Source: a virus. Taken from it: a stretch of 64,000 bases of DNA. Position numbers and translations under genes: made by a program. A model generated the notes under the pieces. That model did no database searches, was not told where the DNA came from, and saw only the letters and a list, made by a program, of their open reading frames with translations. Below are positions 3,469 through 57,419 of the stretch, one piece after another; the stretch's first letter is position 1, and every line of letters begins with the position of its first letter. The stretch is taken from IMG/VR virus record IMGVR_UViG_3300045988_094674, positions 59,788 to 123,787 of that record, one strand, 5' to 3'.

Positions 3469-3822
3469 ATGGTTTACGACATTAAAACAGTTCCAGAAGA
3501 TACTCCTATATGGTGTACTGGATTTAGATTTGACGATACAAAGGCTGGCATCAAATGTGAGCCTGTCTTTGGTACTTTTGAAGAAAGAAGTTGCTATTCT
3601 AAGTTCCATACCTTGAGTAACAAAACGAGATCAAAAACTTTTAGCGTTGGGGCAAATCCTGATTGTTATCGTTTCGCAGACACTTATGAAGAAGCGGCAA
3701 CTGAATATAATGGTATGATTTTTGCTGCCAAATACGAGCTTATTAAAAAACAAGAATATCTAGAGCAGTGCTTGCTGGCTGATAAGAATGGGTCAGTATA
3801 TAATCGTGTAAGTATGCAGTAA
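3469..3822 (+). CDS. hypothetical protein, paralogue A of 4875-5210
   Basis: Shares TVPED..WCTGFRFDDTKAGI.C.PV.GT and FADTYEEAA..YN.MI blocks with ORF 4875-5210. Confidence 0.55.
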   Translation: MVYDIKTVPEDTPIWCTGFRFDDTKAGIKCEPVFGTFEERSCYSKFHTLSNKTRSKTFSVGANPDCYRFADTYEEAATEYNGMIFAAKYELIKKQEYLEQCLLADKNGSVYNRVSMQ

Positions 3823-3851
3823 AATGTATGTTTTAGAAAGAGTTAAGAATA

Positions 3852-4250
3852 ATGGAAATTTGGGAGTTGAATCTTTTACATGATGGGGATATAGAACGAA
3901 TATGTATGTGCTCTGACGAGCAACCACTATTTGAAATGGCAATCGATAGAGCATTTAATTTATTTGCAAAAATAAATGAGTGGCCGCTTGAACAAGATCA
4001 TTGCCATACTTCTATAAATGTAAACGCGCATCTTCATTCTGTTTTTGTAAAAATCAGTACACAAGGTGACAACACAGTTGAACTCTGGGAGTATAAATGG
4101 GAATGTATTTATAAAGAACCTCATGAAGACAAGTCTAGTGACACCTTACTTCAAAAAGTTGTTTCTCATGTACGAGACATTCCAAAACTATTTTATGATT
4201 GGGCAGATAATTTCTGCTGGAAAGCGAGAAAAAATGGCTATTTGCAGTAA
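3852..4250 (+). CDS. hypothetical protein
   Basis: Track ORF. No homology recognised. Confidence 0.5.
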   Translation: MEIWELNLLHDGDIERICMCSDEQPLFEMAIDRAFNLFAKINEWPLEQDHCHTSINVNAHLHSVFVKISTQGDNTVELWEYKWECIYKEPHEDKSSDTLLQKVVSHVRDIPKLFYDWADNFCWKARKNGYLQ

Positions 4251-4671: not shown

Positions 4672-4824
4672 ATGAGAAAGATGTCACTAAAAGAGATGAA
4701 CAGAATGTACCATCTTCGAGAGCATGGCCGTTCTAAAAAGGTTCGTAAAAAGAATCATCATCGGGCGCAAAAATATCTTAATAGATTTGGTGCCATTCCT
4801 TACGATTACGAAAAATACATTTAA
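4672..4824 (+). CDS. small basic protein (50 aa, hypothetical)
   Basis: ATG at 4672 runs to TAA at 4822-4824. AAGGA lies upstream. Lys/Arg/His-rich. Below the track size cut-off. Confidence 0.3.
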   Translation: MRKMSLKEMNRMYHLREHGRSKKVRKKNHHRAQKYLNRFGAIPYDYEKYI

Positions 4825-4874
4825 GAACTAGACTTTTATGAGGTAACTTATGGGTTGGAGAAAGGAATAAATAT

Positions 4875-5210: not shown

Positions 5211-5288
5211 AAAAGATCATCTGTTGCAGGTAGAGACACTAACTCCAAGATTGAAGGAAAAATATTTGAGCAGATTGGGGTACTTACT

Positions 5289-5489
5289 GTGACAAGAAAA
5301 CGATATATTAAATTGATTATGTCTTTGCTGTATACACGAAACGAAGCTATCGCTCAAGCAAAATACATTAACGATTTAATGAAAACAGATCCACGTTGCA
5401 CTTATCAAGTTTCGTGTGATGTTATCGATGAATATGATAATCATTGTATTGAAGTGATAAACAAAAAGAAAGCGAAAGAATATGGCTAA
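5289..5489 (+). CDS. hypothetical protein
   Basis: Track ORF with a GTG start. Overlaps the next gene by 8 nt. Confidence 0.4.
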   Translation: MTRKRYIKLIMSLLYTRNEAIAQAKYINDLMKTDPRCTYQVSCDVIDEYDNHCIEVINKKKAKEYG

Positions 5490-5682
5490 AGAATTAGGGT
5501 TTTATAAAGACCAAACAGAATATTATAAAAGATCAATCGAAGATCTACTGCAACATTATACTGATAGCTGTGGCATGTGTACGGTTAATTTAGATTGTAG
5601 TGAATGCGTTGTGGATGATTTTATCAATCAGCTACGAAATATTCTGTATAGTAGTAGTGAGTATAAAGGGGAAAACATATGA
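5482..5682 (+). CDS. hypothetical protein
   Basis: Track ORF. ATGA overlap with the next gene. Confidence 0.45.
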   Translation: MAKELGFYKDQTEYYKRSIEDLLQHYTDSCGMCTVNLDCSECVVDDFINQLRNILYSSSEYKGENI

Positions 5683-6089
5683 AGCTGCTTTTACAGTCTA
5701 ATGGAGGGTTTTCTGGATTCTATAGTAGATTTATTTTGATTGATACAGACCTACACAAAATGGTAAAAACGGATGGCCTTATGAAAGATGGTCTAACTAG
5801 AATAAAATATATTTTGGACTATATCGATAATGAGAAGATTCCAGATGTTGATGATTTTGGCAAATCTCTTTGTCAGGATTTCAATTATGATATTTCACTA
5901 CTTGAATGTTTTTTACCGACCGCCAAAGTTGTCACTAATGAATCCGTCATAATGGACGACATCAATTATGATGTTTATCTATCATCTGAAAACGTTCCGT
6001 ACAGAAAGTTCAGATTGAATTCTTCATCATATCTTGAAAATGACGCTCTCAGCGTAAAGCTTAGGGAACTATTTCAGACATTTTTATAA
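5679..6089 (+). CDS. hypothetical protein
   Basis: Track ORF, translationally coupled to the upstream gene. Confidence 0.5.
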   Translation: MKLLLQSNGGFSGFYSRFILIDTDLHKMVKTDGLMKDGLTRIKYILDYIDNEKIPDVDDFGKSLCQDFNYDISLLECFLPTAKVVTNESVIMDDINYDVYLSSENVPYRKFRLNSSSYLENDALSVKLRELFQTFL

Positions 6090-6100
6090 ACTAGTGTTTT

Positions 6101-6577
6101 ATGAAGCGTGAAAATAATATTTATGTACAAAGAGCAAAAGCTACAGCAAAAACAAAACCACTTGTAGATGACATCGTTAAAACACTATCTTCAGAGGAAC
6201 AGCGGATGCTTGGTGTTTATAACGATGAATATCTAACAATTCCGGCAGGGGGACATGTTATAAAAAGATTTTTAAAAATCAGTGACAATACTCCTGTTGC
6301 GTTTTTTGACCTGTTTGAAGAATGGTCATATATAGATGTAGCGGTTGCAACAAGAAACGATAAAAACTATCGAGGACATGGATATGCATTGAATCTTGCA
6401 CAATCGGCAATTAAATGGTATACAGCTCACAGATCCGATTTTGATAATAAACCGCTATTGTGGATAACTCGAAAAGATAATATGGCATCAAATCAATTGG
6501 CTTTGAAAATTGGGATGCATCCAGATGATACTTACAATAAATCCAACGAAGTTTGGAATTGCTACAGATACTCGTAA
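6101..6577 (+). CDS. GNAT-like N-acetyltransferase (tentative)
   Basis: The stretch ...RNDKNYRGHGYALNLAQSAIKW resembles GNAT motif A (R-x-x-G-x-G/A). Size is about 158 aa. Confidence 0.45.
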   Translation: MKRENNIYVQRAKATAKTKPLVDDIVKTLSSEEQRMLGVYNDEYLTIPAGGHVIKRFLKISDNTPVAFFDLFEEWSYIDVAVATRNDKNYRGHGYALNLAQSAIKWYTAHRSDFDNKPLLWITRKDNMASNQLALKIGMHPDDTYNKSNEVWNCYRYS

Positions 6578-6614
6578 TTTTATAAAACTTGAATTCTTAT
6601 AAAGGAGGTTCACA

Positions 6615-7445
6615 ATGATTATTGACTGCAAATCTATTGCACAAGATATCAAAAATAAAATCAAGAATATTATCGCAGAAGCTGACTATGCTCCTGTTTT
6701 ATATATTTATCAAGTAGGGGACAACCCTGCGTCTAACGCCTATATTCGTGGTAAGCTGCGTGACTGTGAAGAGGTGGGAATCGAAGCGGAGCTTATCAAA
6801 CTGCCAGAAGATATTACGGATGATGAATTAAATAACAAGATACTGGAAGATTATAATTATAATTGGGAAGATGTGGACGGTATCATCGTCCAGCTTCCAC
6901 TGCCAAAACATGTCGATCCTAAAAATATTTGTATTCCAGACGCGGTTGATGTTGATGGTTTTAATTCTACATCTCCATTTCAGCCGTGCACTCCGCTGGG
7001 CGTTATGAAGATTTTCGACGCGATTGGTTACGATTTGGATGGCAAGAATGTGCTTGTGTGTGGTCAATCTGATATTGTGGGTCGTCCACTGGTTGATATG
7101 CTGATTAAGCGGCACTGTAATGTGATCTCTGTGAATAGTACGGGGGATTATATGAAGAATACTGCTTACGTTACAAAACTAGCAAATGTTGTCATCTCTG
7201 CGGTTGGAAAACGTAATTTTATTTCTCATATAGATCTATTCAACACAGATGTCTGCATTGATGTTGGTATCAACTATGACGAGAATGGCAAACAACATGG
7301 TGATTGTTCTGACGATATTTATGAGATGAAAGATATCAAGGTAACCCCTCGTATCGGCGGAGTTGGCCTCATGACCCGTGCCATGCTCTTATATAATGTA
7401 TGTGTGGCTAGATATGGTGAACATAAGATGGAGAGCATCCTATAA
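6615..7445 (+). CDS. folD: bifunctional methylenetetrahydrofolate dehydrogenase/methenyl-THF cyclohydrolase
   Basis: FolD hallmarks: VGDNPASNAYIRGK, GIIVQLPLPKHVD, VDGFN, PCTPLGVMKI, VCGQSDIVGRPL, PRIGGVGLMTRAMLLYN. Confidence 0.85.
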   Translation: MIIDCKSIAQDIKNKIKNIIAEADYAPVLYIYQVGDNPASNAYIRGKLRDCEEVGIEAELIKLPEDITDDELNNKILEDYNYNWEDVDGIIVQLPLPKHVDPKNICIPDAVDVDGFNSTSPFQPCTPLGVMKIFDAIGYDLDGKNVLVCGQSDIVGRPLVDMLIKRHCNVISVNSTGDYMKNTAYVTKLANVVISAVGKRNFISHIDLFNTDVCIDVGINYDENGKQHGDCSDDIYEMKDIKVTPRIGGVGLMTRAMLLYNVCVARYGEHKMESIL

Positions 7446-7472
7446 TATAGATGATAAGAAGTGGAGAACATT

Positions 7473-7667
7473 ATGGAAAGTAAAGAAGCAAAGTTGGTGT
7501 ACACACCAAAAGACATTCAGAAGATGCTGTCACTCAGCAAGAGTGCGGTATACAATCTCATTCGAGACGGCTCTATTCCGTCTGTTAAAATCGGACATTC
7601 CTATAGAGTCGGTGTAACCCAGTTTAATCAATGGTGTAAAGACAATGCAATCGACAAAATTTGCTGA
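7473..7667 (+). CDS. excisionase-type helix-turn-helix DNA-binding protein
   Basis: YTPKDIQKMLSLSKSAVYNLIRDGSIPSVKIGHSYRV fits the excisionase/MerR-like HTH pattern. Lies immediately upstream of the attP-like region and int. Confidence 0.6.
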   Translation: MESKEAKLVYTPKDIQKMLSLSKSAVYNLIRDGSIPSVKIGHSYRVGVTQFNQWCKDNAIDKIC

Positions 7668-7694
7668 TGCGACATGGGTTCTTTGTCGTGGCTA

Positions 7695-7725
7695 GGTTAC
7701 ATCTGGGTTACATTTTAGGTTACAT
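7695..7725. repeat. three direct GGTTACAT repeats (putative integrase arm-type sites, left arm)
   Basis: GGTTACAT at 7695, 7706 and 7718, spaced 11-12 nt (about one helical turn). Confidence 0.6.
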
Positions 7726-7737
7726 AATGCCAAAAAG

Positions 7738-7826
7738 ACAATATGGACTATATGGAAAGAATGGACAATATGCGCCGATTTTCAACAAAGATTTACTGAA
7801 TTATCTGCACTATATGGACAATATGC
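7738..7826. repeat. direct repeats ATGGACAATATGC (x2) plus a related ACAATATGGAC
   Basis: A perfect 13-mer occurs at 7761-7773 and 7814-7826. A related copy lies at 7738-7748. Candidate Xis or accessory-factor sites. Confidence 0.45.
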
Positions 7827-7843
7827 ACTAAAAAGACCGATTT

Positions 7844-7872
7844 GATGGCAGTTCGACTCCCATCGCCTCCAC
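7844..7872 (+). other. attP core candidate: 3'-terminal fragment of an Ala-identity tRNA or tmRNA
   Basis: GATGGCAGTTCGACTCCCATCGCCTCCAC has T-loop-like GTTCGACTCC followed by the acceptor 3' strand CGCCTCC-A-C (U70, A73, first C of CCA). No 5' half of a tRNA is present. Confidence 0.55.
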
Positions 7873-7877
7873 TTCTA

Positions 7878-7920
7878 ACGGCTAGAAATTGACGTTAATT
7901 CGTTGGTTTCTAGCCGTTTT
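7878..7920 (+). terminator. rho-independent terminator after the tRNA/tmRNA fragment
   Basis: CGGCTAGAAA ... TTTCTAGCCG stem followed by TTTT. It would terminate the reconstituted host RNA gene after integration. Confidence 0.55.
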
Positions 7921-7930
7921 CTTTGTAAAA

Positions 7931-7958
7931 ATGTAACCGGTTACATTTTAGGTTGCAT
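7931..7958. repeat. palindromic pair ATGTAACC/GGTTACAT plus degenerate GGTTGCAT
   Basis: ATGTAACCGGTTACAT at 7931-7946 and GGTTGCAT at 7951-7958. Same motif family as the arm repeats. Confidence 0.5.
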
Positions 7959-8002
7959 TTTATTTTGGAATTTGTTACAATGGTGTCGTGAAGATTTTTC
8001 TC

Positions 8003-8034
8003 GGTTACATTTCAGGTTACATAGCTGGTTACAT
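8003..8034. repeat. three direct GGTTACAT repeats (right arm)
   Basis: GGTTACAT at 8003, 8015 and 8027, spaced 12 nt. The ORF track translates them as GYISGYIAGYI. Confidence 0.6.
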
Positions 8035-8068
8035 CAACTGGCGAGATTTTCAAAAAGGAGAGTCTAAA

Positions 8069-9214
8069 ATGAGAGAGAAAGTTGTGCAGAACATCTATTA
8101 CGACCGAGAAAAGAAAACCTATATTGTCTACTTCAACTACGGCAAAGATCCTTCTGGTAAGTATATTCGTAAGACTAAAACCTATAAGGACATCCGCACA
8201 GCAAAGCGTGAATTGAAGAATTTTGAGGCAGAAAAGGTCAACCAAGAGCTTGTCGATCCTTCTGACATCGCATTCAAGGAGTACGCAGAACAATGGCTCA
8301 AGTATAAGACGTCAAGCTGCGAGGCCACCACAATATATGGCTACACCCAGTTTTTAAATAAACACATCTATCCATTCATGGGCGATATGCCACTCCAAAG
8401 CATCACGTCTGACACAATCAACGATTATATTTATTTCAAAACTCACTGCGACAAGAAAGACAATCCACTCAGCTTGAACTCGATTCGCAAACACTATGAC
8501 CTGTTAAAACAGCTTTTTGATCGAGCGGTCGATTCAGACAGAATAAAAAAGAACCCTGTAAACAATGTTGCACCACCCAAGAAGACAGACGCTGAAATAT
8601 CTGTGTATACCGCAGAACAGTTGCAGATGCTATTTTCGATTATAAGCGGTACAAGAATGGAACCCATTGTAAAACTTGCAGGATACCTCGGCCTTCGTAG
8701 AGAGGAAATATGTGGACTAAAATGGGAATCAGTGAATTTTGAAAAGAACGTAATCTATATCAATAACGCAAGAACGTTTGCCGGTACTACTGTAGAGAAG
8801 GGAACAAAAAGTAAACGCAGCACTCGTGTTCTGGCAATGCCGCAGGATTTGGCAAAAACTCTAAAAGAGATCAAAGCAGAGCATGACGACTACAAAGCAA
8901 AACTTCAAGCTGACCATGGATTTGAGTATGTGATAAGCATGGAAAACGGGATGCCTATGCGCCCAAACTACGTCAGCGATTGCTTTAAGAAAACGATTGA
9001 TGATGCACATCTGCCACACATAACCCTTCATGGTATTCGTCATAGTTTCGCTTCTGTTGCAAACGAACTTGGGATTCCTCTTTATGAAATATCCACATCC
9101 CTTGGTCATTCCAATACAACTATCACAGAGCAGATTTATGTAAAGCTGTTTGATGCAAAGCATACGGACACTATAAACACAGTTGCTGATGCGCTCGCCA
9201 CAAAAGATAAATAA
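8069..9214 (+). CDS. int: tyrosine integrase
   Basis: ATG at 8069 preceded by AAAGGAG. C-terminal catalytic region has LRREE, HGIRHSFAS and LGHSNTTITEQIYVK (R..H-x-x-R..Y). Adjacent to the attP-like region. Confidence 0.85.
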   Translation: MREKVVQNIYYDREKKTYIVYFNYGKDPSGKYIRKTKTYKDIRTAKRELKNFEAEKVNQELVDPSDIAFKEYAEQWLKYKTSSCEATTIYGYTQFLNKHIYPFMGDMPLQSITSDTINDYIYFKTHCDKKDNPLSLNSIRKHYDLLKQLFDRAVDSDRIKKNPVNNVAPPKKTDAEISVYTAEQLQMLFSIISGTRMEPIVKLAGYLGLRREEICGLKWESVNFEKNVIYINNARTFAGTTVEKGTKSKRSTRVLAMPQDLAKTLKEIKAEHDDYKAKLQADHGFEYVISMENGMPMRPNYVSDCFKKTIDDAHLPHITLHGIRHSFASVANELGIPLYEISTSLGHSNTTITEQIYVKLFDAKHTDTINTVADALATKDK

Positions 9215-9252
9215 TCTAATTAAGGTGCATGAACACTCTCCGACGCCTTTTA

Positions 9253-9281
9253 TTGAATCGCAACAGAATAAGTGGCATAAT
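9253..9281 (+). promoter_or_regulatory. sigma-A/sigma-70-like promoter candidate
   Basis: TTGAAT (9253-9258), a 17-nt spacer, then CATAAT (9276-9281), about 30 nt upstream of the 9311 start. Confidence 0.4.
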
Positions 9282-9310
9282 ATAAAAAACCGACTTGGAG
9301 GTTTCGCACA

Positions 9311-9745
9311 ATGACTGAATTTGAAGTTGAACGTATCAAGCAAGCGCTCGCAGTTTTAAAAGAACAAAAACTTAAAACATATGAAGATCAGGTCGGTAGA
9401 TGTGATAACCCCAAACAATTGGCTAGAGAAGTCAAAAAGTATACCAGTGCTATAAATGATGTTGAGGCACTGCTTAAAAATTATGGTCTTCTTACGGCGG
9501 GCGTATCGCAAACAGCAGAGCAGTTAAATAGCCCTGAAAAAGAGCACATGTATCGCTTTGGTGTTAAATACAAAGCATATGCACCAGAAGAATATGCTGA
9601 TTGGGCTTATAACGAAGTCCGCACCCAAATCGGTTGTACGGAAAATGAAGCAAAAGAATATTTAGAATCACATTTGCAGTTTGAATATTGCAACGATAAA
9701 ACCTTCCGTGACTTACAAATCGAATTGATTGATCAATTTTATTGA
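9311..9745 (+). CDS. hypothetical protein
   Basis: Track ORF with GGAGG upstream. First gene after int. Confidence 0.5.
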   Translation: MTEFEVERIKQALAVLKEQKLKTYEDQVGRCDNPKQLAREVKKYTSAINDVEALLKNYGLLTAGVSQTAEQLNSPEKEHMYRFGVKYKAYAPEEYADWAYNEVRTQIGCTENEAKEYLESHLQFEYCNDKTFRDLQIELIDQFY

Positions 9746-9752
9746 GGCTATC

Positions 9753-10790
9753 ATGAAGAAAGAAATGTATCTGCCACTTGAGATGTTAAAGAAAATTACA
9801 GAACAATATCCAAAAGCATGGGAGCAAATGGCAATGTTTCATAGTGAAAATGGGTCACCAGAACTTGGATCATGGCCTGAATGGTGCTATACTCCAATGA
9901 GCGCTGCGTTGGCAGTAGCATCCAAAGGGTATGATTTAAACAAGCTTCCTATTGATATAAGAATGGGAATAACATCCGTGGCTCAGGCAATATTTGCATT
10001 AGCTCCGTGGCGATTAAATAAAGAGGTCTATGTCGTCGATGAAGATTTAAAGAATCTTTTATTTGAGCAAGACGGAGAACTCGATGTCCCTGACGAAATA
10101 TTATTACAGCTTCCATATCCGTGTTTTTATGTAGAACTGCCAAACACATACTATAGGGCAGATAAGATTCATGGATTCTTTGTGACGCTGGAATATGACA
10201 TTATTAACGGTGACAAAGAGTTAAAACCTGTTTTTCTTACGGAAGATGGAAGCGTATTCAGCTATTCCATTCATATTGGAGCAAAAACAATAGAGGAAAG
10301 TGTGGATATGCTCGATAAACAGGCTCTTGAAAATACGAACGGAAATAAAGAACTAAAACGTTTGGCGCTAAGAGCGATACAGGATTCAGCAGAAACAAAA
10401 ATATTCTTAAAACGAATCCTCCAAGTGATATTATATATTCTTGCACAAAACGCAGAAATTACGCAAAATTTTGAGCAGTCATTTATCACAAAAAGAGGAA
10501 AAACAATCAAGGATAAATATTCAGAAATACGCAAGTGGGATGTTGGTATTCGTGTTGGGGCTGCAATAAGGCAGCAGAAAATGCGCGAGCAGTCTGAACA
10601 ACCAGAACGAAATCAAAATGGGCATAATTCTCCAAGACCTCATATGCGTCGTGGTCATTGGCATCATTTCTGGACCGGACCAAAGACACAACCTGAAGAA
10701 CGCAAACTTATTTTAAAATGGCTATCACCTATGACGGTTGCAACAAACACGGATGATACGCCTGTTGTAATTCATAAGGTGGGACTATGA
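9753..10790 (+). CDS. hypothetical protein with C-terminal His/Arg/Trp-rich motif
   Basis: Internal ATG of track ORF 9729-10790. C-terminal motif SPRPHMRRGHWHHFWTGP. No family named with confidence. Confidence 0.5.
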   Translation: MKKEMYLPLEMLKKITEQYPKAWEQMAMFHSENGSPELGSWPEWCYTPMSAALAVASKGYDLNKLPIDIRMGITSVAQAIFALAPWRLNKEVYVVDEDLKNLLFEQDGELDVPDEILLQLPYPCFYVELPNTYYRADKIHGFFVTLEYDIINGDKELKPVFLTEDGSVFSYSIHIGAKTIEESVDMLDKQALENTNGNKELKRLALRAIQDSAETKIFLKRILQVILYILAQNAEITQNFEQSFITKRGKTIKDKYSEIRKWDVGIRVGAAIRQQKMREQSEQPERNQNGHNSPRPHMRRGHWHHFWTGPKTQPEERKLILKWLSPMTVATNTDDTPVVIHKVGL

Positions 10791-42890: not shown

Positions 42891-42921
42891 TCTATAAAAG
42901 CGGAGACCGCAAAGTCTCCGC
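42891..42921 (-). terminator. rho-independent terminator after the major capsid gene
   Basis: On the minus strand, GCGGAGAC-TTTGCG-GTCTCCGC followed by TTTTAT. Confidence 0.6.
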
Positions 42922-42944
42922 CCAGATTTGCCTTTGGTAAAAAA

Positions 42945-43118
42945 TTACTGCAGAACAATCTTAGCAACACGCTCAATATGATCAATGCTGTAGCCGAAGG
43001 TAAAGTCCTTGACCATCAGATGAATCTTTTCGTTGTTGTTATCGTGGTCCTCGTAAGTATGAGTCTCACCCTTCATGTCAAGTCTTCCGATCTTGCCCGC
43101 AATACCATAAATACGTTT
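42945..43118 (-). CDS. major capsid protein, exon 2 (proposed)
   Basis: Open frame KRIYGIAGKIGRLDMKGETHTYEDHDNNNEKIHLMVKDFTFGYSIDHIERVAKIVLQ* with no start or SD of its own. Followed by a terminator. Confidence 0.6.
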   Translation of the reverse strand, partial: KRIYGIAGKIGRLDMKGETHTYEDHDNNNEKIHLMVKDFTFGYSIDHIERVAKIVLQ

Positions 43119-44703
43119 CCAAAATTTTTAAGAAAAATGTTTATCTAAAATATTTTCTACATTATCAAAATCTGTGTAGGGAATTCTGATAAGTTTGATT
43201 CCATTACGATTACAATATTCTGTTTTTAAAGAATCTTTCTTTTGCTGACTTTTATATGTACTAATAGAGTCGGATTCGGTTACACTCTTGCTAAACCTAA
43301 CAGGCATAAAATGTTGTTGCCCGTCGTATTCAATGCAAGTATTTTTTGATGGTATATAGAAATCAAAAGGAAGCTGCCGTTCATTTTTACAATCTTTAAA
43401 ACTGTATTCTCGTATGTAATCAATGCCATAACTATCGAGATAATTGCATACTTTTTCTTCACCATGAGAAGAACAACACTTTGGACATCCATGCCCGCCA
43501 AGAACTGAATTGACAGCTGTTGACCATTTGTAACCACATTTCTTACATTTAAAATTTGCATGAGATAATATATTTTTATATCCGCTCAAATACTCAACAC
43601 TTGGAGAAACCGTTCTTAGTCGTTCTATCATTTCAGACTCTAAAATATGTGCTCTCCCAGCACATTTTGGACAACCAGAATTTTTATTATTAAGTATCGT
43701 ATCAGGAATTGCGGTCCAATGGTAACCGCAAACATCACATGCAAAATCCACTTTCACAGCAACACGGACATATTTTGAAAGAACATGAATAGTAGGAAAT
43801 CGTTCACGCATTTCTTTTAAGAATTCATCTTCCGTTCGTCTGTTTGCAATCCGTCGATAACATTCTGGACACCCATGTCCATCAAGCAATGTATGAGATA
43901 TGCCATTCCACTCATACCCATCAAGTTTACAACGACAATGCACTCTCGCATTGTTTGTTGTGTATTCAGATAACAACTCAATATTAGGATTTACTTCAAA
44001 CAGCTCCGTGGAAAATTGTATTGGCGACTTTCTTTTTTCTGCTCCACGCTTAGAGGCAACACATGCTTGACACCCACGATTATCAAGCAACATTCTTGCC
44101 TGTACTTCACGTACATCCCCGCATACTTTACATTTCCTGGTAATCTTTTTTCGAAGACCATTATATTCGGATAAAATTTCAAAATTTGGGTTTACATCAA
44201 ACACTTCTTTTTTGAAGTCTTCTGTCGTTCTCATTGGTGTCATCCATGCCACCTCCTTTCTTGCAAAATAAAAGCCAGATACTCTACACAGCATCTGGTC
44301 AAATCAAAATATTAGATAAACATTATATCGGACGCTACTCCGCTCTTGTTGCATCTAGCAACCTCGTACTCTCATACGAGTGAAGACTATATCTTCACCC
44401 AGTAAAACTGGGGCACACCACTTCGGATGCCAAACACTTGCATCCTAACCGCTCCCACGCGGATAGTCGTTGGACCTTCTCCTTTTCGGAGCTTGGCTGC
44501 TGATTGCCCATTATTTCAGCGTTTAGGATTTAACCTTGCGCCATCTACAATTTTCTTTCTACTTTCATAACCACCCATCTAGGCATATTTCATCCTTCTG
44601 TTTTGGTAATTGTAGTTTTAGGGTTTTCCAGCAATTCAATGTGTATTTGTTATCGTGACTTACATCACGACTGGACTATATTACGTAAATTTACATAAAT
44701 TTA
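43119..44703 (-). mobile_element. group I intron in the major capsid gene (1585 nt, with HEG)
   Basis: Minus-strand core elements: P AATTGCTGGAAAACCC (44621-44636), Q AATCAGCAGCC (44495-44505), R GGTCCAACGACTATCC (44461-44476), S AAGATATAGTC (44385-44395). P/Q and R/S are complementary. The exon ends in U and the intron ends in G. Confidence 0.7.
43128..44243 (-). CDS. intron-encoded homing endonuclease candidate: four zinc ribbons plus a Vsr/PD-(D/E)XK-like nuclease domain
   Basis: AAGGAGGTG plus ATG at 44243. Four C-x2-C...GC-x2-C repeats (for example KCKKCGYKWSTAVNSVLGGHGCPKCC). C-terminal LPFDFYIPSKNTCIEYDGQQH...GIKLIRIPY. Confidence 0.65.
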   Translation of the reverse strand: MTPMRTTEDFKKEVFDVNPNFEILSEYNGLRKKITRKCKVCGDVREVQARMLLDNRGCQACVASKRGAEKRKSPIQFSTELFEVNPNIELLSEYTTNNARVHCRCKLDGYEWNGISHTLLDGHGCPECYRRIANRRTEDEFLKEMRERFPTIHVLSKYVRVAVKVDFACDVCGYHWTAIPDTILNNKNSGCPKCAGRAHILESEMIERLRTVSPSVEYLSGYKNILSHANFKCKKCGYKWSTAVNSVLGGHGCPKCCSSHGEEKVCNYLDSYGIDYIREYSFKDCKNERQLPFDFYIPSKNTCIEYDGQQHFMPVRFSKSVTESDSISTYKSQQKKDSLKTEYCNRNGIKLIRIPYTDFDNVENILDKHFS

Positions 44704-45525
44704 ATCCGGGATCAGCAGGGAACCATCACCCAGCTTCTTAGCAGAGCTAATACCAGTGATAGCAACACCATCGTAAGTCTTGACCAGGCCATAACGGTTG
44801 AACTCATCCTTAGCTGCATCAGACAGATACTCAGCGTAACCGGTCATACGACGCATCTTAGCACAATACTTCATCAGGCTGACAGTGAAGGGGTTACCAC
44901 CATCGGCGTACTCATTCAGATACAGAGCCAGAGCGTCCATGTCCTGCATAGTGGGCTCCTTACCCTGTACATCGATCTTCTGCTCGCCACCAGTGATAGC
45001 GTCATCAACCATGCTGAAGATGTCATAGAACATCTGGTTCTTCAGAGCCTCAGTCATAAAGGTGGTCAGAGTTGCCACACTCTTCCAAGCATTACGTCTT
45101 ACTTCCACAAAGCTAAGATCAGCCTCAATCTGCTTATTACGCCAGACGGGCTTAATGGTCTCGTAGTGCAGGTAAGACTTCGGCACGTTGCCACCCTTAG
45201 CTGCATCATAAGCCTTCAGAGTATTTTTAACAGTACGACCTGCCTCGTAGTCATCAAACTCACCAACATTACCACGCTCAAACATGGAGTCCAGAAGCTC
45301 GTCAGGTGCGCCATACAGCTCATCAGTCACGGTGCGATTAACAAACTGAGCAATTTCCTTATTGGGATCGCCCTTGTCAATCAGCTCCTCAACATGAGCG
45401 CCAACAACCTCTGCAATTTCCTTGTCCTCGGCATCCATAGCGCGATTGTACTGAGTCTTCTCAGCAACTTCATAAACACGACCAGGCTGCTTCATCAGCT
45501 CGGCCACTTCAATATTCAGTGCCAT
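44704..45525 (-). CDS. major capsid protein, exon 1 (proposed)
   Basis: Track ORF 44701-45525 (274 aa) downstream of the scaffold/protease gene, with G/C-richer codon usage. The TAA at 44701 is read as intronic. Confidence 0.7.
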
Positions 45526-52912: not shown

Positions 52913-52987
52913 TGGCACGCCCACTCCGAATCCAACAGAGATAAGTGAGTTTAGAGCTCACCGTCTTAGGCATTAAACGATAGGCGC
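52913..52987 (-). tRNA. suppressor tRNA, anticodon CUA (reads UAG)
   Basis: 75-nt cloverleaf: GCGCCTA-TC-GTTT-AATGCCTA-AGAC-G-GTGAG-CTCTAAA-CTCAC-TTAT-CTCTG-TTGGATT-CGGAG-TGGGCGT-G-CCA. Anticodon loop is C-U-CUA-A-A. Confidence 0.75.
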
Positions 52988-52992
52988 ATAAT

Positions 52993-53069
52993 TGGTGTAT
53001 CCGGCGAGATTTGAACTCTGCGATACCTCGATTAAAAGTCGAGTGCCTTACCAGCTTGGCTACGAATAC
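52993..53069 (-). tRNA. tRNA-Lys (UUU)
   Basis: Acceptor GTATTCG/CGGATAC. Anticodon stem CTCGA/TCGAG with loop CTTTTAA. The T stem needs one bulged A. CCA is encoded. Confidence 0.6.
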
Positions 53070-53136
53070 ACAATAAAACCTACCTTTTAGCCGGTGGTAG
53101 GGAACCGGTATAATATAGGCCCTCCGGGAGAAGGAC

Positions 53137-53228
53137 TGGCGCGGTCTCAGAGATTCGAACTCTGGCATCGGGTTTACCGACCTAACGGTTTTCAAGACCG
53201 TTCTCTTCAACCACTTGAGTAAGGCCGC
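53137..53228 (-). tRNA. tRNA-Ser (UGA)
   Basis: Class II tRNA. Anticodon stem ACGGT/ACCGT with loop CTTGAAA. Long variable arm. T arm CAGAG-TTCGAAT-CTCTG. CCA is encoded. One C.A mismatch in the acceptor stem. Confidence 0.75.
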
Positions 53229-53294
53229 ACAATAACCCTACTTTCCTGCACAGCTACCTTTATATAAAGGTGTAGGGAATAGCCGTACAATCTT

Positions 53295-53381
53295 TGGTGA
53301 GCCAGGTTGGAGTCGAACCAACGATGTTTCTAATGTCACGGAGTTACAGTCCGCTATCTTCGCCACTGGATATACTGACCC
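53295..53381 (-). tRNA. tRNA-Tyr (GUA)
   Basis: Acceptor GGGTCAG/CTGGCTC. Anticodon stem GCGGA/TCCGT with loop CTGTAAC. Long variable arm. T loop GGTTCGACTCC. CCA is encoded. Confidence 0.7.
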
Positions 53382-53613
53382 ATAATAAAACAAGCATCCA
53401 TCAATCCGTCCGAGCTAGTTGAATTGTCCTCGTGTTGATAAAACGCTTGTTTTAAACTTTAATGGTCCGCACTTACGGTGGCGGAACACCTGATGTTTTA
53501 AATCGCGCACTGACACGGCGCAATGCGATTGGCTTGGCATTTTGCTCCTCGAAGCTACTCTGCGTCTGACTTTACAGCTTATACACGGTTGCAACCAATG
53601 ACCGCTTTCGCCA

Positions 53614-53684
53614 TGCCACCTACAGGAATCGGACCCGTATGTGAAAATTACAAATTTCCCATTCTACCATTAAATTAAGGCGGC
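53614..53684 (-). tRNA. tRNA-Thr (UGU)
   Basis: Acceptor GCCGCCT/AGGTGGC. D arm ATTT-AATGGTA-GAAT. Anticodon stem GGAAA/TTTTC with loop TTTGTAA. T arm ACGGG-TCCGATT-CCTGT. No encoded CCA. Confidence 0.6.
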
Positions 53685-53811: not shown

Positions 53812-54810
53812 TTAATTCAAACGCACAATATGCGTTTTACTCTCAATCAACTTTCCATCCTTGTCCTGATAGACAACAATAAAACCCTCTCGCTGCGGAG
53901 TGGTCAGTTTACCGTCTGCATACTCCATTTTTGAAGTATCGCAACAACAGCCCTGCTCGTATAGATTATACTTTCCGACAGAATAAGAGCCGACACGATG
54001 TACATGACTCATAACCAGCGAATCAAAATCAAGTCCAATATCCTGAAAATAGCGTAGCGCTTTTTCGCTTGTTTTCAAAATTCCAGATGAGAATGCCATA
54101 GGATGACACAGAACAGTGCTTCCTATCTGGCTATACCAACTGTCGTTGTAAATGATTTCAATATCTTCTACACTAAACACCTCAATCAAAGGATCATAAT
54201 GAACCTTTGTATGAAGTTCCTTGTTATAATGGTTAAATCCATCAATAAGAATAAGTTCAAGTGCAGTCTTCGGCATTAAGGCGAGAAGATCCTCGTCAAT
54301 GTTCTTGGCAAGATAATTCTGGAAACGAATATCATGATTGCCGTAATTGACCACAACCTTTTTAGGCCGTAGCATTTCAATCAGGTCAATCAAATACTGT
54401 CTTGCCAACAGAATTTCATCCATTGGACTTTGCCGATACACACGCGAAAAACGCGACAGGGCAGCGGCATCTACGCAATCTCCGTTTACCTGAAGAATAT
54501 CAATCTTGCCAGCGTACTCACTAAAAGTCTCAATAGGCTTCTGGAATGGAATATGTAGGTCGGAAATAGACAGAATGCAGGTTCCAACATCTCTATTAGA
54601 TAAGGACTCCTGATATTGCATACCCGCACGGAATGCCTTAAAACGCTTGCGATATGCGCACTCACCAAAATTCTTACCCAATTCATCATTGAGCACCTTG
54701 GATGCGCCATCCCAAGTCAATTCTCTAGCCAGAACAGCATTCCCGATTCTTACAAAGAAGTCATCGCTCGTTTCTTCTGGCCGTTTATTATAGCAACCCA
54801 TTGGCATCAA
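53812..54810 (-). CDS. calcineurin-like metallophosphoesterase
   Basis: Motifs ISDLHIP, VNGDCVD, NYGNHD and MSHVH in the canonical order. Confidence 0.7.
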   Translation of the reverse strand: MMPMGCYNKRPEETSDDFFVRIGNAVLARELTWDGASKVLNDELGKNFGECAYRKRFKAFRAGMQYQESLSNRDVGTCILSISDLHIPFQKPIETFSEYAGKIDILQVNGDCVDAAALSRFSRVYRQSPMDEILLARQYLIDLIEMLRPKKVVVNYGNHDIRFQNYLAKNIDEDLLALMPKTALELILIDGFNHYNKELHTKVHYDPLIEVFSVEDIEIIYNDSWYSQIGSTVLCHPMAFSSGILKTSEKALRYFQDIGLDFDSLVMSHVHRVGSYSVGKYNLYEQGCCCDTSKMEYADGKLTTPQREGFIVVYQDKDGKLIESKTHIVRLN

Positions 54811-55044: not shown

Positions 55045-56061
55045 TCAAATAAGGCCATATTTGCCATAATAGTTTTCCATATTGATTTCTGGGAACTTCA
55101 CATCAAGCAAACTTGCCCATTGGCTGATCCAACTATGATGTATACCTTCAAATTTTTTGATGGCGTCTTCAACCGTCTTTACCTTGCGCAGATCAATTTC
55201 AATATAGCGTCCATGAGAACAGGCGTAATCTTCCTTTATCTCATCACGTACCCAGAGTTCTTTAAATTGACTTTCATCCCGATGAAAATATGGAGTGTAT
55301 TTATAATGCTGCCCACCCATAACTTCGCAAAAAATCTTTTCAGACGGAATGTAAATATCATATGGCATCCATCGACCAGTCTTTGGATTCTTGACCACTC
55401 TGTATTCCGTAATTGTATCAGGATACTTCTTTTTGCAGTATTCTTTCAAACCAGTAGCAACTCGACTATCACTTTTGTGAATTGCACATTCTGGACACCC
55501 TTTTCCAGCTCGAAAATTACTCCAGTCGATTTGTTGTTCACCATGTTTAGGGCATAAATAATGCAGTTTCGTTGAAGCGTTGTGGTAATCCTCTTTTTTT
55601 GATAAAAGAGTATATCCGCGTTTTGCAAAAGCATCCGATATCACATTGAAATCTTTGCAACGCCGTTTCGCAACGTCTTCATCTGCACATTTTCTACAAC
55701 CGGCACCATGCGAAAAATTATTCCAACCAATAGTCATTTCTCCATGTTTTGGACAAATAAAATGAATCTTTTTTGTTGACGATGGTTCTTTCGTTAACAG
55801 CGTATAACCACGATCTTCAAATAAAGTTTTGACGTTTTCATATTTTAATTTGTTTTTACGAGATGCTATCCGATCTCCTCTTGCACAAATATCGCAACCT
55901 TTCTCGACAAGGATATTTTCTGCAAGAGCGTAATATTCTCTACCACAACGATTACATCGCACAAGGATTTTATCTTTTGTACGTGAAAAAGTACCTACAA
56001 CAGTAACTTTCTTGTTCTTTTCTTTTGCTTTTTCTTGAAATTCTTCGTTTGATAAAGACAT
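55045..56061 (-). CDS. free-standing homing endonuclease candidate (paralogue of the capsid-intron HEG) fused to a duplicated phoH 3' end
   Basis: Zinc ribbons (RCNRCGREY...GCDICA, ICPKHG...GCRKCA, LCPKHG...GCPECA). Nuclease block YDIYIPSEKIFCEVMGGQHY. The C-terminal WISQWASL... repeats the PhoH end. Confidence 0.6.
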   Translation of the reverse strand: MSLSNEEFQEKAKEKNKKVTVVGTFSRTKDKILVRCNRCGREYYALAENILVEKGCDICARGDRIASRKNKLKYENVKTLFEDRGYTLLTKEPSSTKKIHFICPKHGEMTIGWNNFSHGAGCRKCADEDVAKRRCKDFNVISDAFAKRGYTLLSKKEDYHNASTKLHYLCPKHGEQQIDWSNFRAGKGCPECAIHKSDSRVATGLKEYCKKKYPDTITEYRVVKNPKTGRWMPYDIYIPSEKIFCEVMGGQHYKYTPYFHRDESQFKELWVRDEIKEDYACSHGRYIEIDLRKVKTVEDAIKKFEGIHHSWISQWASLLDVKFPEINMENYYGKYGLI

Positions 56062-56067
56062 TTTTTC

Positions 56068-56781
56068 TCACTCCATTAAATCAGCCCATTGGCTGATCCA
56101 TCCGCGATGATCAATAGTCAAATTACAAATTGCAACACGCTCGTGCTTTGAATAGTGCTCAATACATTTCGTAAAACCAGAAGTGGACGAATCTTCAAGG
56201 TCGCACTGTTTGTCATGACCAATCACAATCAGTTTTACTTTTTGTCCATTACTGCCATCACAACGAGAAATAGTTGTACGCAACTCAGGAACAGTGAAAT
56301 TCTGACTTTCATCAATCAAAATTATACCTTTTAAATTCATACCACGAAGGAATGTATGAGTCATACAATCAATATAACCAGTCCCATTCTTTTGATTTAC
56401 CATTGTATCATCATTGATAACTTTATTTGGATCAATGCCACACTTGACAAGTGCCTGATAGAATGGGGCAAAATAGATTTCGCTCTTTTGTGCCAAATCT
56501 CCGGGAAGATATCCCTGACGCTTCTCACCATAGCTAGAGACGACATATGTAAGATGGTCAAAATAACCACACTGAACAAGCAAGTTTGCAGTCGCTGTTG
56601 CAATAAGCGTTTTGCCAGAACCGGCACAGGCATTCACCAGCACCACATCAATGTCGGGATTCCAAATGGCATCACGAAGAACTCGCTGTTCTTCACAGAG
56701 CTGAATGCCATAAAAACCATACTGATCAGGATCAGTAATCTTCTCCATGGGAATCTCAGTGGGAATCTTTCTCTTAGCCAT
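56068..56781 (-). CDS. phoH: PhoH-like ATPase
   Basis: P-loop NACAGSGKTL, Walker B IILIDESQN, and LIVIGHDKQCDL, typical of phage PhoH. Confidence 0.8.
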   Translation of the reverse strand: MAKRKIPTEIPMEKITDPDQYGFYGIQLCEEQRVLRDAIWNPDIDVVLVNACAGSGKTLIATATANLLVQCGYFDHLTYVVSSYGEKRQGYLPGDLAQKSEIYFAPFYQALVKCGIDPNKVINDDTMVNQKNGTGYIDCMTHTFLRGMNLKGIILIDESQNFTVPELRTTISRCDGSNGQKVKLIVIGHDKQCDLEDSSTSGFTKCIEHYSKHERVAICNLTIDHRGWISQWADLME

Positions 56782-56795
56782 ATATTTACTCTCCC

Positions 56796-57419
56796 TTAAT
56801 TGAACTCATCCACATCATCGCAAATCTTATCTACGATACCAAAGTTGACCTGTTCAGTAGCATCCAGATACCAATCCTTAGCCTTATTCTTAGTCATAGT
56901 CTTCTTGTCGATAGTAGAGTGAGCCATAATATACTCACGCATCTTCACAACCTGCTTCTCGTAGTAGTCCATAGCCATCTTAGACTGCTCGAAAGTACCC
57001 TGAGTACCGCCAGAGCCACTGTGAATCAGCGCGGTAGAGTGAGGCAAAGCAAAACGCTTCTGACCAGACAACAGCATCACAAGAGCAGCACTCATTGCAA
57101 TACCTGCATTGATAGTCCAAACAGGAGTCTTACTCAGCGCAACAACATCAATAAAGCTGAACATCGCATCCAGCTCGCCGCCGTAGCTGTAAATAAATAG
57201 CTTAATAGGCTTGCGCTGCTCAATAGGAGTATCCTTATCAATACGGTTGTACTGCAGAATCTTGCGCTCAATTTCAATCAAAGATTGGTCAATCTCAAAG
57301 TCGATAAAGAAGATGCGATCCTTCTCATCAACGTAGAAGTTCATCATCTCAGGAGAGGGGAGACCGCCACCATTCATCAGGTTGGTGATCTCTTCTGGCA
57401 GTTGAATTTCAAAGTCCAA
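56796..57419 (-). CDS. clpP: ClpP-family serine protease
   Basis: TTG start. YSYGGELDAMFSFID, catalytic-Ser context NAGIAMSAAL, and LPHSTALIHSGSGG. Confidence 0.8.
   Translation of the reverse strand: MDFEIQLPEEITNLMNGGGLPSPEMMNFYVDEKDRIFFIDFEIDQSLIEIERKILQYNRIDKDTPIEQRKPIKLFIYSYGGELDAMFSFIDVVALSKTPVWTINAGIAMSAALVMLLSGQKRFALPHSTALIHSGSGGTQGTFEQSKMAMDYYEKQVVKMREYIMAHSTIDKKTMTKNKAKDWYLDATEQVNFGIVDKICDDVDEFN

Follow-up and report, generated by a model that had tools for sequence, protein, structure and literature searches.

Does a phage gene that stops at one codon and seems to resume 1585 nucleotides (nt) further on still encode a single protein? The question is raised by a stretch of viral DNA of 64,000 nt, hereafter the window, which covers positions 59,788 to 123,787 of the IMG/VR record IMGVR_UViG_3300045988_094674. 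As a first-pass annotation made from the sequence alone had pointed out, a capsid open reading frame (ORF) on its minus strand ends at TAA 44701, and downstream of it lies a frame of 57 codons plus stop whose 5' end has neither a start codon nor a Shine-Dalgarno sequence, followed by a terminator. Our answer, which we consider very probably correct, is that the two frames are exons of one HK97-fold capsid gene of an SPbeta-like gut phage, and that a mobile subgroup IA group I intron, which carries its own endonuclease gene, interrupts it after codon 274. The predicted parts of the gene, in window coordinates, are as follows.

44704..45525, minus strand: exon 1 of the major capsid gene, codons 1–274 (...LLIPD), taken from the ORF list and aligned to residues 1–274 of uninterrupted homologues; its last base is U44704.
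43119..44703, minus strand: group I intron of 1585 nt, from U44703 to the terminal G43119; exactly the segment missing from empty-site genomes, supported by Rfam RF00028 and by covariation.
42945..43118, minus strand: exon 2, capsid codons 275–331 (KRIYGIAGK...IVLQ), colinear with the C-termini of uninterrupted homologues; stop TAA at 42947–42945.
42894..42922, minus strand: intrinsic terminator-like hairpin of 10 GC-rich base pairs with a U-tract, 3' of the capsid gene (fold of -19.1 kcal/mol, z = -2.5).

Exon 1 closes with ...CUG AUC CCG GAU, where GAT occupies 44706–44704, and the stop UAA follows at once at 44703–44701. When 44704 is joined to 43118 the two exons make 996 nt and a protein of 331 aa. 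In a search of 5.8 billion proteins, uninterrupted homologues of 331 aa were recovered at 99% identity and 100% coverage; full-length homologues at 99–100% identity do not end at LLIPD and read on through KRIYGIAGK..., colinear with the 42945–43118 frame, so that the junction of the first-pass annotation (...LLIPD|KRIYGIAGK...) is identical to what intron-less genes encode. The same search also returned a series of 274-aa products, every one of which ends ...LLIPD. At the DNA level, one related contig (L001; related loci are given L numbers here) has an uninterrupted capsid gene whose two flanks are colinear with those in the window, and its gene and the two joined exons are of equal length (996 nt) with 35 substitutions and no insertion or deletion. 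The predicted sequence across the joined exons is CUGAUCCCGGAU|AAACGUAUUUAUGG, and its position is unambiguous because GGAU|AAACG is not reproduced by any other register.

The joined protein also behaves as one unit in structural comparison. Its PHROG profile match extends across the junction, and an AlphaFold model of all 331 residues (predicted local distance difference test (pLDDT) 73, predicted template modelling score 0.72) finds phage HK97-fold capsids and encapsulins as its top 50 Foldseek matches (best E = 2e-9, probability 1.0). The last five beta-strands of the modelled HK97 fold come from exon 2, and because of this a product of 274 aa would be incomplete. From the model and from its place among head genes, the joined product is identified as a predicted HK97-fold major capsid protein.

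The segment between the exons contains a group I ribozyme. The Rfam model RF00028 aligns over its full length (model positions 1–253) at 44363–44704 on the minus strand with 77.9 bits (E = 4.5e-18), above the curated gathering score of 50 bits, and no other Rfam intron match was found in the 64-kb window, permissive thresholds included. The homologous introns L088, L092, L081 and L122 score 63–84 bits. The P, Q, R and S elements that had been read by eye on the minus strand are indeed the segments that form P4 (AAUUGCUGGAAAACCC with AAUCAGCAGCC) and P7 (CAACGACUAUCC with AAGAUAUAGUC). The predicted helices, all on the minus strand, are these.

44363..44671: catalytic core from P2 to P9, from the Rfam alignment and pair counting.
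44671–44652: P2.
44643–44638 with 44419–44414: P3.
44634–44628 with 44503–44497: P4.
44623–44507: P5 and a three-way P5 extension.
44491–44479: P6.
44468–44464 with 44389–44385: P7.
About 44461–44448: P7.1.
44445–44425: P7.2.
44412–44398: P8.
44380–44363: P9.
44362–44348: P9.1 hairpin, 3' of the Rfam model, two pairs with compensatory changes.
44342–44329: P9.2 hairpin, 3' of the Rfam model, three pairs with compensatory changes.

The structure was examined in a set of 22 homologous introns: one from the window, two from bacterial metagenome-assembled genomes (MAGs; L122 and L124) and 19 from metagenome or IMG/VR loci. Unguided folding with RNAalifold recovers P1–P6, P7.2, P9, P9.1 and P9.2. 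Its pairs between columns 3–5 and 315–317, 238–241 and 246–249, and 325–329 and 433–437 clash with group I topology and were dropped for P7 and P8. Pairs were then counted on an explicit group I structure, including the P3/P7 pseudoknot, projected onto alignment columns, with controls in which the pairing partners were slid. In an alignment of 10 sequences, 99.9% of cells are paired and 19 pairs are doubly compensated, against 31–42% and 0–1 pairs in the slid controls; with 12 sequences, 99.6% of 1008 cells are paired and 36 of the 84 pairs are doubly compensated, against 32–41% and 0–3 pairs. P7 and most of P4 are invariant, and are thus uninformative for covariation rather than contradictory. 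The register of P7.1 and P8 was checked by hand because their length differs between clades; P7.1 reads CCGC/GCGG in the window and CUCC/GGAG in L088, and P7.2 (GGAUGC..GCAUCC) has three pairs with double changes. Both hairpins are located in the interval that separates the 5' strand of P7 from the 3' strand of P3, a position by which the intron is assigned, on its predicted structure, to subgroup IA. This subgroup is the usual group I intron type in phages.

Where exactly would such a ribozyme cut? The elements that bear on the two splice sites are the following.

44673..44707, minus strand: P1 hairpin, in which GGAU|UA (44707–44702) pairs with the guide UAGUCC (44678–44673), from RNAalifold and from folding of the isolated RNA.
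44381..44382, minus strand: the J7/9 dinucleotide CA, the core half of P9.0, which covaries with the two bases before omega-G (the terminal G of the intron).
43119..43121, minus strand: 3' end of the intron, U43121 G43120 (the P9.0 partner) and omega-G43119, from P9.0 covariation.

At the 5' splice site the last exon base forms the wobble U44704.G44676, which is invariant in all 12 sequences, and an upper stem-loop continues P1 at 44700–44680 on the minus strand. The exon base at position -4 and its guide partner form G-C in the clade of the window (codon CCG), C-G in L122 (proline codon CCC) and A-U in L124 (CCA), and these three complementary states indicate that the guide tracks its exon. 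The Rfam alignment itself sets P1 on the upper hairpin, around a second U.G pair (U44695.G44684), and splice sites read directly from it are off by 9 nt because its P1 is the upper part of the hairpin. Were the covariance model to be followed in aligning the conserved P1 wobble there, exon 1 would end after U44695; yet the stop TAA at 44703–44701 would then remain in the messenger RNA (mRNA), the uninterrupted alleles read GAT|AAA, the upper wobble is replaced by U-A in the L088-type introns where U44704.G44676 does not vary, and it is the exon pair beside U44704.G44676 that covaries with the guide. A site after U44695 is in our judgement almost certainly wrong. The site after U44704, which the first-pass annotation had also chosen by pairing the terminal exon U, is preferred over the Rfam register on the strength of covariation.

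The 3' end proposed there, a G before AAACGT, likewise agrees with the comparison, as the terminal intron base is G in all 22 homologous introns and is G43119, before AAACGU, in the window. P9.0 pairs CA in J7/9 with UG before omega-G in the window, the L002 type, L088/L090 and L092; the combination is UG with CA in L081, L085, L086 and L095, UA with UA in L122, and GA with UC in L124. The single mismatch is L089, with AG and not UG before the terminal G. This covariation ties the core to a predicted 3' splice site 1.2 kb away.

The comparison of related genomes shows that the intron comes and goes. Among closely related IMG/VR genomes of about 130 kb the site is empty in 52 and occupied in 12, many of them with identical capsid proteins; the insertion point is constant, between codons D274 and K275, and sorting the genomes by how closely their flanks match the window mixes empty with occupied ones. 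L092 and L094 share a ribozyme 95% identical to that of the window and an exon 1 just 71% identical, which indicates that the intron moved between diverged phages, and the identical codon is occupied in capsid genes whose proteins are only 52% (L122) and 44% (L124) identical. L124, from a Lachnospiraceae MAG of horse faeces, holds at 3820–4211 an intron homologue of 392 nt without an ORF. Standard annotation would miss it because its Rfam score of 42.3 bits is below the gathering score of 50, and a view of this locus as intron-free, based on that threshold, was overturned by a permissive scan and direct reading of the sequence. By its presence/absence polymorphism and horizontal spread, the intron is classed as a mobile element.

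The empty sites carry a further signature next to the junction. Of the 35 differences between the window exons and L001, nine lie in the opening 35 nt of exon 2, and the final 50 nt of exon 1 contain none. Silent differences in this opening part of exon 2 are associated with the presence of the intron. Exon 2 of the occupied alleles starts with AAACGTATTTATGGTATT or AAGAGAATTTATGGTAT. In most of the empty ones the start is AAGCGTATCTATGGCATC (GAT|AAGCGTATCTATGGCATC), with differences from the intron-type start at 5 or more silent positions. Four empty-site IMG/VR loci (L014, L025, L031 and L036, at about 4823–4870) have the exon-2 start AAACGTATTTATGGTATT... of intron-bearing genomes; these could be naive susceptible targets or cases of precise intron loss.

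The same comparison bears on the idea that nothing is spliced at all, and that a free-standing endonuclease gene has simply cut the capsid gene into two separately translated pieces. Gene callers annotate the locus in just this way, with a 274-aa product and at times a 43-aa product from an internal ATG of exon 2. Yet neither a start codon nor a ribosome-binding site opens exon 2, upstream of the endonuclease gene there is a complete group I ribozyme whose helices covary, and the ORF-less copy at the same site in L124 is not explicable by endonuclease insertion; we give a two-piece capsid next to no weight.

Most of the intron 3' of the core is occupied by the endonuclease gene. Two intron types recur in what follows: type A is that of the window, and type B is represented by L081, L085 and L095. 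The features of this part, all on the minus strand, are listed here.

43128..44243: homing endonuclease ORF, 371 aa, matching PHROG 559 and Pfam DUF4379, CapR and DUF723; the same product is called in related contigs.
44252..44259: putative Shine-Dalgarno sequence AAAGGAGG of the intron ORF, read from the sequence, 8 nt before the ATG and conserved in type A and type B introns.
44265..44298: terminator-like 9-bp hairpin followed by CUUUUAUUUU, directly upstream of the ribosome-binding site, found by pattern scan (-14.5 kcal/mol, z = -2.2).
43470..44243: four tandem modules of helix and zinc ribbon, aa 1–258, presumed to bind DNA; from the family alignment and AlphaFold.
43131..43469: predicted Vsr-like nuclease domain (EDxHD type, PD-(D/E)xK superfamily), aa 259–371 (113 aa); from Foldseek and the family alignment.

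The ORF begins 3' of P9.2 with ATG at 44243–44241 and ends with TAA at 43130–43128, 8 nt before omega-G43119 and 9 nt before exon 2. The hairpin ahead of its ribosome-binding site could limit expression of the endonuclease or could be a mere peripheral RNA element; at the corresponding place the L088-type introns also form a hairpin, but of another sequence. The protein matches PHROG 559 with E = 1e-82, although the HNH label of that family is not borne out for this ORF, and its Pfam scores for DUF4379 (49.3 bits), CapR (35.2) and DUF723 (22.2) all exceed the cut-offs. Its unnamed relatives number in the thousands. In the AlphaFold model (mean pLDDT 89) a helix-strand-strand-strand pattern is repeated, followed by a C-terminal alpha/beta domain. 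The four zinc ribbons that had been seen in the translation correspond to four Cys4 modules, with ligands at Cys 38/41/58/61, 103/105/125/128, 169/172/191/194 and 233/236/253/256; most of the 16 are invariant or nearly so in 36 homologues, Cys41, Cys172 and Cys236 falling under a 90% cutoff.

A C-terminal block FDFYIP...IEYDGQQH had likewise been compared with Vsr and EDxHD enzymes, and the domain that holds it matches E. coli Vsr in Foldseek (1vsr, template modelling (TM) score 0.59; 1cw0, TM 0.55; probability 1.0), as well as the Vsr-like domains of PvuRts1I and AbaSI. Residues D294, E305, D307, H311, D337 and K340 are invariant in the 36 homologues, and E262 is the majority residue of a GE motif, after the invariant G261. 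In order and spacing, E262, D294, H311 and D337 resemble the active site of Vsr (E25, D51, H69, D97); the corresponding residues of I-Bth0305I are E170, D196, H213 and D222 (PMC3239194). DUF2726 reached 16.4 bits with this protein, below its cut-off of 24.7. The proposed link to Vsr rests on the modelled fold and the motif.

Types A and B share about 95% of their ribozyme sequence (92–100% along its length) and only 67–70% of their endonuclease genes overall. Along the ORF, identity is about 50–75% at the start, climbs to 78–97% in the third zinc module and recovers towards the end; compared module by module, the third is 89–94% identical, and the other three zinc modules and the nuclease domain 55–75%. 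The endonuclease gene is therefore a recombinant patchwork within a conserved ribozyme. Exon 2 starts with AAACGU in type A and AAGAGA in type B, and the 3' ends of the introns differ with compensating changes in P9.0. A 305-aa endonuclease that lacks one zinc module occurs in L092–L094 (about 5310–6227), with a ribozyme 95% identical to that of the window. Phage homing endonucleases are known to bind DNA through CapR-type zinc fingers, modules that shuffle readily (PMC10448857).

It is possible, if rather unlikely, that the conserved ribozyme is a stable chassis on which the endonuclease is swapped module by module, perhaps in an arms race between two endonuclease specificities, each directed at the capsid alleles of the other. 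If so, intron-bearing phages would exclude rivals in co-infection, as for SPO1/SP82, where intron-linked exclusion of the rival phage is described, and for PhiPA3. For PhiPA3, an intron endonuclease is reported to play a part when co-infecting phages compete (PMC11620839). This precedent, together with nearly identical ribozymes that carry such divergent endonucleases and differ in exon-2 start and 3' end, is what one could cite for a further proposal, namely that the intron splices and its endonuclease has ceased to serve simple homing, being kept as a weapon against the capsid gene of competing phage genotypes, or is inactive. Competition and ordinary homing look the same in the present observations, and the presence/absence polymorphism and co-conversion-like tracts are the classic signature of homing, so we think it very improbable that this proposal should replace homing.

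A decaying-looking copy exists in the family: in L089 (4823–6382) the endonuclease ORF is split into pieces of 116 and 265 aa, and this is also the copy with the P9.0 mismatch. Decay therefore occurs among these introns, and one may ask whether the window too holds a splicing-dead relic, its capsid gene being a pseudogene of a defective phage or prophage. Against this, the window copy has all tested helices intact, a guide that fits its own exon, a complementary P9.0, an omega-G and a full-length endonuclease ORF. The 36 pairs with compensatory changes speak for selection on the fold, and many contigs of up to about 147 kb that look like complete phage genomes contain this intron type. A dead relic is accordingly a reading in which we place very little belief.

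The preferred reading, a functional and mobile intron, may be put together as follows. The transcript would contain exon 1, intron and exon 2, and the folded ribozyme would pair its guide UAGUCC with the end of exon 1 (GGAU) and present the U.G wobble at the 5' splice site. An external guanosine would presumably attack after U44704, and G43119, 1.2 kb 3' of the core, would be recruited by P9.0, in which U43121 G43120 pair with C44382 A44381; exon ligation would then give the mRNA of the 331-aa capsid protein. The stretch from P9.2 to the 3' splice site is taken up by the gene for the 371-aa endonuclease, with its own ribosome-binding site. In a mixed infection this enzyme may cut intron-less capsid alleles near the insertion point, and repair would copy the intron into the cut genome along with a brief tract of exon 2.

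Several points weigh against this reconstruction, in which the splicing chemistry, the cleavage of DNA and the homing event are inferred. No convincing P10 was found by inspection when the bases 5' of the guide G were compared with the exon-2 starts AAACGU, AAGAGA and AAAAAG, and P10 is treated as absent or weak. The hairpin at 44265–44298, if it were an efficient terminator, would shorten the capsid transcripts. The association of exon-2 haplotypes with the intron fits co-conversion and cleavage-resistant empty alleles equally well. As for the nuclease, DUF559 scored 16.9 bits, below its cut-off of 20.6, and sequence and profile searches of the Protein Data Bank with the endonuclease gave marginal zinc-ribbon matches only, with neither Vsr nor I-Bth0305I (3R3P) among them.

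How does this intron compare with known systems? In the T4 nrdD (sunY) intron, Michel et al. reportedly described in 1992 an ORF downstream of the core and a 3' splice site about 1 kb or more from P7 that is recruited by P9.0. The first-pass annotation had drawn the same parallel, and it holds: both are phage introns of subgroup IA type with an ORF 3' of the core (here 3' of P9.2) and a remote 3' splice site reached through P9.0, which in our case covaries. The host gene is an anaerobic ribonucleotide reductase gene in T4 and a capsid gene in the window, and the endonuclease is the GIY-YIG enzyme I-TevII in T4, whereas here it combines zinc ribbons with a Vsr-like domain. Self-splicing introns in the gene of the major capsid subunit have been reported for the lactococcal phage Tuc2009 and the mycobacteriophage LittleE; the LittleE intron has an endonuclease gene, does not occur in close relatives, was defined against an uninterrupted allele and was shown experimentally to splice (PMC3706429). 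The locus studied here resembles both in that the major capsid gene of a tailed phage is interrupted, and LittleE also in the endonuclease and in the absence from relatives. The LittleE intron, however, is 819 bp long, bears an HNH endonuclease in the opposite direction and is of uncertain class, whereas ours is clearly of subgroup IA type and has a predicted Vsr-like enzyme on the same strand; splicing is experimental there and deduced from sequence here.

The closest parallel to the endonuclease is a recently described group of enzymes in phage group I and II introns that join three to five modules of about 60 aa, related to CapR, DUF4379 and DUF723, to a C-terminal Vsr/EDxHD-like nuclease of about 100 aa, and which were recognised as a large overlooked outgroup of the EDxHD/Vsr endonucleases (PMC12350094, Nucleic Acids Research 2025). 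The window ORF, likewise inside a phage intron, has the same domain plan, with four Cys4 modules and a nuclease domain of 113 aa. The published enzymes are hosted in genes of virion RNA polymerases, and the likeness to them is one of architecture. Our endonuclease is best treated, like them, as a probable outgroup of EDxHD/Vsr. The EDxHD prototype I-Bth0305I comes from the recA intron of the Bacillus thuringiensis phage 0305phi8-36 (PMC3239194). It too is encoded by a group I intron of a Firmicutes phage and has a C-terminal Vsr-homologous catalytic domain, whose active-site residues E, D, H and D have candidate counterparts here, but it binds DNA through NUMOD and helix-turn-helix elements and not through four zinc ribbons, and its structure 3R3P was matched neither by sequence nor by profile; the fold search listed Vsr, not 3R3P.

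In DNA sequence the core (about P3–P7.2) is 77–79% identical to its closest relatives in isolated phages, which are introns of Enterocloster phages (CB457P1 and others) and of Clostridium phages c-st and D-1873, and 69–77% identical to introns of Bacillus, Listeria and Staphylococcus phages; host genes and endonucleases of these introns are not those of the window. The CB457P1 intron (L126, OP172753.1 at about 8300–9700) is an unannotated group I intron with a core 78% identical to ours and a GIY-YIG "intron-associated endonuclease 1", and it appears to split the hypothetical-protein genes CB457P1_00009 and 00011.

Capsid-gene group I introns and this endonuclease architecture are thus both already known (PMC3706429, PMC12350094). 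Mobile group I introns are an established feature of phage structural genes, and no general principle is changed. What the locus does offer is a correction and a data set. An abundant group of gut phages is annotated with a truncated 274-aa capsid protein, in clusters of hundreds of such sequences, and recognising the intron would restore the true protein of 331 aa. The related genomes are a natural data set, in which one insertion site is found empty, occupied and with an ORF-less intron, exon/guide and P9.0 covariation locates both splice sites, and one ribozyme occurs with two endonuclease variants. They could be a convenient system for target-site evolution in the newly recognised group of zinc-module/Vsr-like endonucleases.

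Among the neighbours of the capsid gene are members of head and tail families of the SPbeta type (YonD_N, YonG_N, YomW and the tube protein YomU), and a gene for a head-maturation protease lies at 56796–57419 of the window. For capsid homologues the Pfam family YonB was seen in precomputed annotations only, and a literature search on YonB found no paper that establishes the role of the protein. Relatives of the capsid gene are located in genomes of Lachnospiraceae, other Clostridia and Paenibacillus. Among 50,697 GenBank phage records, neither a megablast search with the locus nor a tblastn search with the joined capsid protein gave a match, so that this phage lineage is one without a sequenced isolate in that set.

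A second endonuclease of this family, free-standing and of 338 aa (55045–56061, minus strand), is 25% identical to the intron ORF and has CapR/DUF723/DUF4379 zinc modules and the same nuclease motif (PYDIYIP...EVMGGQH); its gene lies between a PhoH-like gene (56068–56781) and a metallophosphoesterase gene (53812–54810), with no intron-model match nearby. Some intron-bearing relatives (L002–L004, at 1–631) have an ORF for a 329-aa LAGLIDADG-type endonuclease about 5 kb upstream of the capsid gene, and because it is absent from L001, the content of homing endonucleases may vary among these genomes. One contig (L005, ENA ERZ27263312 k141_43454, 5216–10757) follows the intron-bearing locus up to 122 aa into the endonuclease ORF and continues beyond that point into a conjugative element, with genes for ParB, ArdA and type IV secretion; the switch could be a real junction or else a chimera that arose in assembly at a shared endonuclease-like repeat. 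Finally, five tRNA genes (Rfam, 40.9–57.1 bits) are clustered upstream of the head-gene block, at 52916–53684 on the minus strand.

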